From the NCBI GenBank assembly GCA_948805675.1, contig CAQIBN010000001.1, positions 115,141 through 179,140 on the forward strand: a DNA stretch of 64,000 bases, in the 5' to 3' direction. Positions 12,219 to 12,942 of the stretch are shown piece after piece (position 1 is the stretch's first letter; each line of letters opens with the position of its first letter). The position numbers were made by a program, and so were the translations under genes. This DNA is from an uncultured Clostridia bacterium. Lineage in GTDB: Bacteria; Bacillota; Clostridia; TANB77; CAG-508. A model generated the notes under the pieces. That model ran no database searches and was not told the DNA's origin. It saw nothing but the letters and a program-made list of their open reading frames with translations.

Positions 12219-12274
12219 AGCTCACCAATTATTGAAATGTGCCATAGATGGCACACTTTTATAATTGGTGAGCT
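12219..12274. terminator. long bidirectional hairpin between convergent ICE genes
   Basis: AGCTCACCAATTAT...GTGCCAT-AGA-TGGCAC...ATAATTGGTGAGCT nested perfect inverted repeat. Confidence 0.6.
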
Positions 12275-12942
12275 ACATATTGAATAAAGTTTTTAGCAGT
12301 AGGTCTAGAACCATAATAGTCTGAAAACTTTCTACAAAAGATATTAAAGTTTCCTTTACAACTGTAAATTGAATTTAACTGTTTATCAATAAGAGAATGA
12401 ACAGTTCTAACATTTCTCTCATTATTAATATCTTTAACTTTTTCTAAAATATTATCTAATTTTAATTGGGGTTCTTTATAAGAAACAAGGATAGCACTTT
12501 TTAAAAGTTTAGTACTTTTTGTGTAAGAGTCAAATTGAAGCTCTTTTAGAATATTATCAATTTTTACTTCAATAGTGTTTTCATTAGGTTTGATTTGACG
12601 AATAGAATTAATTACTTTTGATATATCAAATGGTTTTGGATATATCATTTCAACTTTTGATATATCTGAAATTTGAGCTCTATAAATAGTTGAGCCAGAA
12701 AGGATAATAACATTTCTTTTGGTATCATATGTAGAGATTTTTTCAAGTAATGTAAGACCATTAATACCAGGCATATTAAGATCTAAAATAAGTACATCTG
12801 GATTGAGGTCTAAGTAATGTTTTAATGCAATATTACCATCATGAGATAGGTTAACTACTTGTAAGTCTTTTTCTTGTGTTAACATATAAGCTAATTGATT
12901 AGCTTGTTCAATATTATCATCAGCAATCATAATTGATATCAT
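12259..12942 (-). CDS. Spo0A-like response regulator encoded on the ICE (receiver plus Spo0A_C-like domain)
   Basis: Receiver motifs IMIADDN and ILDLNMPGINGL parallel the host Spo0A ([19 protein letters not shown]). C-terminus ...GSRPTAKNFIQYVAHQL parallels Spo0A ...[16 protein letters not shown]. Confidence 0.7.
   Translation of the reverse strand: MISIMIADDNIEQANQLAYMLTQEKDLQVVNLSHDGNIALKHYLDLNPDVLILDLNMPGINGLTLLEKISTYDTKRNVIILSGSTIYRAQISDISKVEMIYPKPFDISKVINSIRQIKPNENTIEVKIDNILKELQFDSYTKSTKLLKSAILVSYKEPQLKLDNILEKVKDINNERNVRTVHSLIDKQLNSIYSCKGNFNIFCRKFSDYYGSRPTAKNFIQYVAHQL

Follow-up and report, generated by a model that had tools for sequence, protein, structure and literature searches.

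Can a mobile element carry its own version of the sporulation regulator Spo0A and, if so, does the element use it to tap into host sporulation or for purposes of its own? This question is raised by a 64,000-nucleotide stretch of DNA (the window; GC content approximately 25%) from an uncultured Clostridia bacterium (assembly GCA_948805675.1, 373-kb contig CAQIBN010000001.1, positions 115,141 to 179,140), in which positions 1-17539 belong to an integrated element. Within the element lies a gene for a response regulator (RR), which the original prediction took to be a paralogue of the host Spo0A encoded elsewhere in the window. It was proposed that RR might accept phosphate from the host phosphorelay, or compete with Spo0A at its DNA sites (0A boxes, TGTCGAA), and so couple conjugation or excision to sporulation or modulate sporulation itself. 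We show here that RR is a functional regulator with a divergent Spo0A-type output domain and that it belongs to a clade of its own. The reading that we favor, at about even confidence, is that RR is the element's own switch, acting at its own phased boxes rather than competing with Spo0A. The coordinates of all features are given in Table 1.

A response regulator with a complete receiver and no kinase found nearby

The RR gene is real, functional and under purifying selection, and its phospho-acceptor site is intact. The receiver matched Pfam Response_reg (PF00072) over residues 4-114 (E 1.7e-15, 57.6 bits), and in an alignment of 15 family members D8, D9, D54 and S82 were invariant and K103 was nearly so (at least 90%). 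A Foldseek search with a model of the whole protein matched the Spo0A receiver structures 1QMP and 5WQ0 (TMt 0.83-0.87). The ratio of nonsynonymous to synonymous substitution (dN/dS) against four relatives was 0.16-0.28 in both domains, the value of 0.16 coming from a relative that is 85% identical, and an identical protein is present on 12 contigs. In a protein database search the homologues of RR fell into 16 cluster representatives (37-96% identity) that are annotated as receivers only; the next-best matches included several true Spo0A proteins, aligned over the entire query. We found no HisKA/HATPase_c kinase domain in window positions 1-17550 or in the 10 kb to the left of the window (approximately 27.5 kb of element), nor within approximately 10 kb of the RR homologues in six related loci (L081-L086). 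RR is an orphan response regulator with a complete phospho-acceptor site.

The output domain is a divergent Spo0A_C homologue

The original prediction stood or fell with a significant match of the C-terminal ~100 amino acids to Spo0A_C (PF08769). With a single-sequence profile search this match was not obtained: RR scored 13.5 bits (E 0.073) against a gathering threshold of 25 bits, and the sub-threshold alignment ran end to end (RR residues 128-227 against positions 1-104 of the 104-position model). Read literally, this result refutes the prediction. We have set it aside as a refutation of homology because profile, structural and transitive searches agree that the homology is there. The evidence is as follows: (i) a profile made from the RR-family C-domains alone (A2; A1 being the whole family alignment) had as its two best matches in the PDB 1LQ1 (E 1.7e-4) and 1FC3 (E 5e-4), both Spo0A effector domains matched at full length, followed by a partial stretch of a proteasome subunit (E 3.9e-3); (ii) hhalign of the RR C-domains against an alignment of bona fide Spo0A C-domains gave 103 collinear columns at E 1.1e-3, with a probability of just 20.5%; (iii) an AlphaFold2 (AF2) model of the C-domain (pLDDT 92.7) has six helices, and its top seven Foldseek matches in the PDB were all chains of 1FC3 or 1LQ1 (TM 0.72-0.84, rmsd 1.8-2.5 Å), compared with TM values below 0.4 for every non-Spo0A match; (iv) the A2 profile retrieved 179 cluster representatives from 1.84 billion proteins, and among the best 150 of these PF08769 was carried by 128 and a receiver by 46; and (v) the sister regulator L004 (see below) passed PF08769 outright (E 3e-10). 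The C-domain was modelled separately because the whole-protein Foldseek search was swamped by receiver domains and was uninformative on this point.

Given the agreement between profile, hhalign, structural and library searches and the sister regulators, we conclude that the RR C-domain is a divergent Spo0A_C homologue missed by Pfam's model. The original prediction fails only in the single-sequence test. The locus also shows that a whole clade of Spo0A_C proteins escapes Pfam, so that counts of element-borne Spo0A-like regulators are underestimates.

RR belongs to the Spo0A lineage and is not Spo0A

That the receiver and the C-terminal domain both have Spo0A as their closest relative has held up. 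Among NCBIfam models, the Spo0A equivalog TIGR02875 ranked first for RR, with 69.3 bits against a cut-off of 200. The host protein is a genuine Spo0A, as had been assumed: it scores 377.2 bits with the same model, is named Spo0A by NCBI (MCI8486699.1), and its start at 49345, within an open reading frame (ORF) of 49231..50163, fits the start of the model. RR and host Spo0A are 23% identical (BLASTP E 1e-15) over the receiver and the first helices of the C-domain, and they have few alpha-1 residues in common, the residues that normally determine kinase specificity. RR also sits in an inserted element whose site is empty in related strains, in a host that has its own Spo0A, and so is not a single chromosomal master regulator. 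Thus RR is not a Spo0A orthologue but a member of a separate element-associated clade descending from the Spo0A lineage, and with 23% identity and 69 of the required 200 bits it is not a paralogue of the host protein in any recent sense. Just downstream of host spo0A (50337-51140) is an XerC/XerD-like tyrosine recombinase gene split into two ORFs of 100 and 161 amino acids.

RR ends in ...GSRPTAKNFIQYVAHQL, with the helix quoted in the original prediction. It departs from Spo0A in the predicted recognition helix. Two MAFFT modes bridged by sister families, together with hhalign, align V181, I185 and Y193 of RR with V212, I216 and W224 of Spo0A. In this register the positions of Spo0A E213, R214 and R217, reportedly the base-contacting residues (Zhao et al. 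2002), are taken by H182, S183 and D186. A HMMER alignment to 1LQ1 (S183=S210) would instead place D186, K187 and N190 there, so that the Arg residues are absent in either register; we rejected this alternative as it conflicts with the register given by 1FC3 and hhalign, which is the one backed by both MAFFT runs. Within the RR family S183, I185, D186 and K187 of the helix are invariant.

A regulatory/recombination module on a family of T4SS-bearing elements

The prediction that RR is borne by an element related to integrative and conjugative elements (ICEs) was borne out. Recognizable genes in the element part of the window encode PrgI, VirB4, an M23 peptidase, a sortase, a type IV coupling protein (T4CP), a ribbon-helix-helix (RHH) protein, a sigma-70 region-4 protein, a DUF6075 protein and a large serine recombinase, and the 10 kb to the left of the window add TrbL_4, helix-turn-helix (HTH) regulators and a large adhesin. 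Thus type IV secretion system (T4SS) genes (PrgI, VirB4, TrbL_4, T4CP), an M23 hydrolase and a serine recombinase are combined in a segment that is absent from related genomes, and RR lies within its regulatory/recombination module, with the sigma-like gene and the large serine recombinase. No relaxase was found in the ~27.5 kb of element seen, the left junction was not reached within 10 kb to the left of the window, and Rfam gave no match on window positions 1-20000.

The module is kept in seven related loci (L081-L087), where the RR gene diverges from an ORF of 131-148 amino acids (scored as sigma-70 region 4 in L081, L082, L085 and L086) and is accompanied by small ORFs and one or two serine recombinases. 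T4SS genes are also present in L081-L085. In L086 and L087 we found none within approximately 10 kb on either side of the RR module, which means that the RR gene travels with the recombination/regulatory core and not with the T4SS. In this family of T4SS-bearing integrative elements of gut Clostridia, RR is a constant part of the module that combines regulation and recombination. In a phage collection of 50,697 records there was no relative of RR and no match of any kind to its C-domain; in a plasmid collection there was no RR family member, and the full-length matches annotated there were only true Spo0A.

Two features set the window copy apart from its relatives. First, the T4CP gene (8697-10980) is split into five ORFs, that is, it carries two extra frameshifts compared with the conserved arrangement of three overlapping ORFs of approximately 348, 184 and 236 amino acids in relatives (for example L081 12243-14503 and L085 13059-15232). 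Three further assemblies of this element show the five-ORF form too. VirB4 is split into two or three ORFs in relatives, and the splitting of both genes hints at programmed frameshifting or a genuinely split protein. Second, an LPD25 gene that adjoins RR in relatives is missing, and the third copy of a promoter repeat therefore faces the 3' end of the RR gene, a strong hairpin at 12218-12275 lying between the two. RR itself retains an intact promoter, ribosome-binding site and terminator in this copy.

Sister regulators outside the family are found at loci L002-L005, two of which, L003 (32% identity over RR residues 1-225) and L004 (34% over residues 1-165), are very similar to each other. A sister regulator holds the same position beside an Orf7/Orf8-like pair and a tyrosine integrase. 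There are also additional regulators within the family: a second, Pfam-recognized protein with a receiver (REC) and Spo0A_C directly follows the first in L083 (10810-11547, plus strand; 25% identical), L084 likewise has a second one, and L082 encodes a 224-amino-acid protein with a weak Spo0A_C match (8256-8930, minus strand). Elements of the RR family appear to collect Spo0A-like regulators.

Candidate operators and the switch that RR may operate

When the intergenic region between the RR and sigma-like genes was aligned for nine elements, both promoters stood out as conserved, and so did an array of phased (C/A)GTAAA boxes lying between them, at a distance of 45-80 bp from the RR -35 on its upstream side. 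L001 and L081-L085 have kept this array, and in a set of 87 loci it was seen nowhere but ahead of RR genes belonging to this element family; the pattern CGTAAA-N4-6-CGTAAA is found in 5 of the 87, always upstream of RR-family genes. Relative to the 0A box, xGTAAAA retains G2, T3, A6 and A7, and A-A replaces C4-G5. Spo0A contacts G2, C4 and G5 of TGTCGAA, each base being worth approximately ten-fold in affinity (PMC3485338). Sister families carry true 0A boxes at the equivalent place and keep the Arg equivalent to R217. Loss of Arg from the protein and loss of C4 and G5 from the boxes are an anecdotal co-variation in the RR family, short of proof, and this is the best pointer to the operator.

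Under the own-switch reading, D54 would be phosphorylated by a host kinase or a small-molecule donor, and RR would then oligomerize head-to-tail as Spo0A does. Activated RR would bind the four phased boxes as 0A-box derivatives without C4 and G5, and this binding would set transcription in both directions, of RR on one side and the sigma-like/recombinase gene string on the other. The sigma-like factor, or RR itself, would then fire three near-identical T4SS promoters. Since the Arg residues by which Spo0A reads the 0A box are replaced, RR would have no action at the 0A boxes of the host.

Several points weigh against this model. The array is weak statistically in DNA of 25% GC (1 match against 0.10 expected, a level reached by 10 of 100 shuffles), and the assignment of RR to any DNA site is a sequence-based one. 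The sigma-like protein, a 138-amino-acid HTH protein, the RHH protein or the HTH proteins further left could own either site, and the three T4SS promoters, with three phased boxes each, could be the real target of RR. With regard to the protein, the register of the recognition helix is ambiguous between two HMMER alignments, our choice being guided by the multiple alignment. The left part of the element lies beyond the region seen, and a kinase may lie there. Finally, given the two extra T4CP frameshifts, this copy of the element may no longer conjugate, its RR being intact.

The T4SS promoters deserve separate consideration, as they provide the basis for an alternative. The repeats precede blocks of T4SS genes, have kept their sequence in L001 and L081-L084, and show a gap of approximately 19 nt between the TTCAWW boxes and a perfect TATAAT. 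They resemble a dedicated element regulon and are likely targets of the sigma-like factor or, alternatively, of RR. It could be that RR activates the conjugation genes directly, through the phased TTCAAAA/TTCAAAA/TTCATTG boxes over the -35 of these promoters, as Spo0A does at spoIIG, and that the xGTAAA array is another factor's. In keeping with this, the 28-nt phased pattern is present in three exact copies against 0.39 expected, the promoters stay near-identical between elements even where their regulators share only 51-85% identity, five of the seven positions of TGTCGAA are matched by TTTTGAA, the reverse complement of the box, and a perfect sigma-A type -10 with a poor -35 is what would be expected of an activator-dependent promoter. 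However, L086 and L087 keep RR, the sigma-like gene and the recombinase with no T4SS genes seen within approximately 10 kb on either side, the sigma-like protein is an equally good candidate for recognizing the common -35 motif, and the TTCAWW boxes are absent from RR's own control region. On balance we consider direct activation rather unlikely.

Other elements of the control regions bear on how transcription might be bounded. A hairpin over the RR stop codon would end both the RR transcript and the convergent transcript from the promoter at 11770. Conserved long-range inverted repeats flank the sigma-operon promoter (13138-13169 and 13292-13328), where AGGAACTT...TTTTAGGAGT pairs with ACTCCTAGAA...AAGTTCCT; these could be paired looping operators or a leader RNA stem. 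A small ORF after the conserved AAGGTGGTGGTG, downstream of the same promoter, was dropped from consideration because it is not conserved between elements.

Insertion in sporulation genes and the link to the host

The right end of the element falls within a sporulation gene. The junction (17539/17540) is followed by the remainder of a pdaB-like gene, seen as an 85-amino-acid ORF (17525..17782) directly after the recombinase gene. On the host side, two human-gut metagenome contigs from related strains (L091 and L092) are 87-92% identical to the window as far as 17540, from where they continue as an uninterrupted gene, ...ITIQWNL/DTLDYTG... (L091 5117-5629 and L092 1156-1668, both on the minus strand). 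The uninterrupted L091 ORF covers PdaB positions 39-191 with 141 bits, PdaB being the best family although the score is below its cut-off. The ORF itself begins no earlier than PdaB position 39 in L091 and L092 alike, and a different large serine recombinase gene lies just upstream of it, a hint that the pdaB-like gene received a second insertion further towards its 5' end.

A second target is seen in relatives of the element. C-terminal fragments of yabG, which encodes a sporulation protease, adjoin the recombinase in L084 (4120-4476), L085 (4310-4744) and L086 (2876-3400), all on the minus strand, and align with TIGR02855 from positions 166, 138 and 108, respectively, to approximately position 278 of 283. 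A manganese catalase gene (cotJC-like) beside the recombinase in L081 was considered as a third interrupted sporulation gene and rejected, as it starts at model position 1 and no interruption is apparent. There is precedent for yabG as a target of intervening elements, which must excise during sporulation (PMC10747680). Given that the insertion interrupts the coding region of a sporulation gene, with a large serine recombinase beside it, the elements that carry RR may represent sporulation-gene intervening elements of a kind equipped with a T4SS. Because the element interrupts a sporulation gene, a link to sporulation is plausible.

This brings us back to the proposal that RR plugs into the host sporulation pathway, being phosphorylated by orphan sporulation kinases and competing at 0A boxes or titrating phosphate, with the effect of modulating sporulation or coupling excision and transfer to it. 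The insertion sites make the idea of host sporulation kinases feeding RR attractive, and several other observations point the same way: the affinity of both RR domains to Spo0A, the lack of a kinase in the ~27.5 kb of element, and the control regions of the sister regulators. All four sisters (L002-L005) have canonical TGTCGAA or TGCCGAA upstream of their own RR genes and keep an Arg equivalent to R217. In an alignment to the window promoter the proximal box of the sisters (in the regions ~2940-3070 of L003 and ~9775-9905 of L004, for example) falls at or just upstream of the -35, and L003 and L004 have phased AAAGTGCTG and AAAGTGTCG units there as well. The sisters may accordingly be controlled by host Spo0A, or may regulate themselves through true 0A boxes. 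Spo0A-type domains are, moreover, not rare in such settings: PF08769 is enriched on mobile elements of gut Firmicutes (bioRxiv 10.1101/214213), gut phages carry receiver-less spo0A homologues (PMC10294663), and some Clostridiales genomes have two or three spo0A paralogues (bioRxiv 10.1101/2022.02.25.481979).

Against the host-pathway proposal stand the low identity of RR to host Spo0A, the few shared alpha-1 residues, the H/S/D found at the E213/R214/R217 positions, and the outcome of the 0A-box search that the original prediction had called for. Both the RR-sigma intergenic region and the three conserved T4SS promoters are free of TGNCGAA. In the element part of the window TGTCGAA is found once, inside the VirB4 ORF, and TGNCGAA five times, none of them in those regulatory regions, and the density of TGNCGAA is the same inside and outside the element. 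For the RR family we reject the 0A-box link, and competition at 0A boxes is unlikely because the Arg residues are replaced and the control region has no 0A box. Taken as a whole, the proposal strikes us as improbable. Over the entire window TGNCGAA is enriched (16 against 4.1 expected). Two perfect inverted 0A boxes (TGTCGAA on both strands, 8 bp apart) lie at 37427-37448 in a host intergenic region whose flanking ORFs have no family match, and a tandem TGCCGAA-N4-TGCCGAA with an 11-bp period lies at 10254-10271 (minus strand) within the T4CP coding region, near a frameshift.

A more elaborate scenario would combine the own-switch reading with the insertion sites. Conjugative elements residing in mother-cell sporulation genes would have captured and re-tuned a copy of Spo0A, which host sporulation kinases would phosphorylate as sporulation begins. 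Variant 0A boxes would let it turn on the sigma-like factor, the T4SS, and the recombinase together with its directionality factor; excision of the element would repair pdaB or yabG, and transfer would perhaps follow just as the host commits to sporulation. This is speculative, and we think it improbable as it stands. If it were true, a mobile element would be sensing a developmental decision of its host in a new manner, and, should the sporulation link hold, conjugative elements would join skin, SPbeta and yin under the intervening-element paradigm. In the literature searched no function has been assigned to element-borne Spo0A_C domains, whether on Firmicutes mobile elements or in the receiver-less phage copies. 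The present locus is a concrete, testable system in this respect, with a full-length RR and its intact acceptor, a defined promoter, a candidate operator, a sigma-like/recombinase/T4SS cascade and an interrupted spore-cortex gene.

It is very unlikely that the RR gene is a functionless remnant on a decaying element, as the fragmented T4CP, reproduced across assemblies, and the missing LPD25 cargo gene might suggest, since the RR ORF is full length with a dN/dS of 0.16 against its 85% identical relative, all catalytic and helix residues are conserved, its expression signals are intact and the identical protein recurs on 12 contigs.

Table 1. Coordinates of the RR gene, its control regions and associated features in the window
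Feature	Position	Strand	Basis
RR gene, receiver plus divergent Spo0A_C-type DNA-binding domain	12259..12942	-	227-aa ORF, Pfam, NCBIfam, family alignment
Receiver domain, residues 4-114, with D8, D9, D54 (phospho-acceptor), S82, K103	12601..12933	-	PF00072
Spo0A_C-like six-helix effector domain, residues 122-227 (106 aa)	12262..12579	-	profile vs PDB, hhalign, AF2, Foldseek, library profile search
Predicted recognition helix, residues 178-193, VRTVHSLIDKQLNSIY	12364..12411	-	AF2 helix; register from two MAFFT runs and hhalign
Candidate RR operator, four phased (C/A)GTAAA boxes spaced 10, 11, 10 bp	13065..13101	-	intergenic alignment
Predicted RR promoter, TTGATT, 17-nt spacer, TG-extended TATATT	12992..13020	-	promoter scan; block conserved in related elements
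Predicted sigma-like/recombinase operon promoter, TTAAAA, 18-nt spacer, TATAAT	13180..13209	+	promoter scan; conserved block
Inverted repeat I7, intrinsic-terminator-like hairpin over RR stop codon	12218..12275		28-nt arms, 89% complementary; terminator scan 12238-12255
T4SS promoter repeat copy 1, three TTCAWW boxes 11 bp apart, then TATAAT	2153..2227	+	repeat search
T4SS promoter repeat copy 2	5376..5450	+	repeat search
T4SS/cargo promoter repeat copy 3, pointing at RR gene 3' end	11770..11844	+	repeat search; precedes LPD25 gene in relatives
Small sigma-70 region-4 protein, 131 aa, divergent from RR gene	13344..13739	+	PF04545 E 1e-6
Large serine recombinase, right end of element	15802..17550	+	Resolvase, Recombinase and Zn_ribbon_recom domains
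3' third of PdaB-like sporulation polysaccharide-deacetylase gene, cut by element	17540..17782	+	TIGR02764 positions 128-191 of 191
Host Spo0A, comparison partner	49345..50163	+	TIGR02875 377 bits, PF08769 E 2.2e-46

Comparison with known systems

RR shares with Spo0A a two-domain plan, a six-helix effector domain (TM ~0.8), the receiver motifs ADDN...PDVLxLDxxMPxxxG, and the motifs KG(T/Y)xxL and KPTxxxFI. It differs in being only 20-23% identical, in having a hinge of approximately 8 amino acids where Spo0A has approximately 30-40, and in the replacement of the 15-residue recognition-helix signature of Spo0A by RTVHSLIDKQLNSIY. Moreover, RR is element-borne, whereas Spo0A is a chromosomal master regulator.

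With the intervening elements skin/sigK, SPbeta/spsM, gin/gerE and yin/yabG, the element shares insertion within the ORF of a sporulation gene and a large serine recombinase at the junction, and the likeness to yin extends to the target, as relatives of the RR family adjoin fragments of yabG. Skin, SPbeta, gin and yin are, however, prophage-like or minimal, and their excision is timed by mother-cell sigma factors through a recombination directionality factor. In the literature searched, neither a T4SS nor a Spo0A-type regulator was reported on any of the four, and there was no description of an ICE acting as a sporulation-gene intervening element.

The closest parallels in gene arrangement are the Tn916/Tn1549-like REC-Spo0A_C regulators (L003, L004 and the second regulators of L083 and L084). 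These have the same architecture and a size of 235-245 amino acids, diverge from an Orf7-like sigma-70 region-4 gene, lie beside an integrase, and have a phased repeat array upstream of the gene. In contrast to RR, to which they are 25-34% identical, they pass PF08769 (E 3e-10), keep the Arg equivalent to R217 and have canonical TGTCGAA/TGCCGAA boxes at their promoters; L004 also differs in having a tyrosine integrase. Our literature search turned up no description of a full-length, ICE-borne REC-Spo0A_C regulator. Precedent for a Spo0A effector-type domain on a mobile element of spore formers comes from the phage-borne spo0A homologues (Schwartz et al. 2023, PMC10294663). The phage versions are without a receiver and signal-independent, whereas RR keeps a complete receiver with an intact acceptor site.

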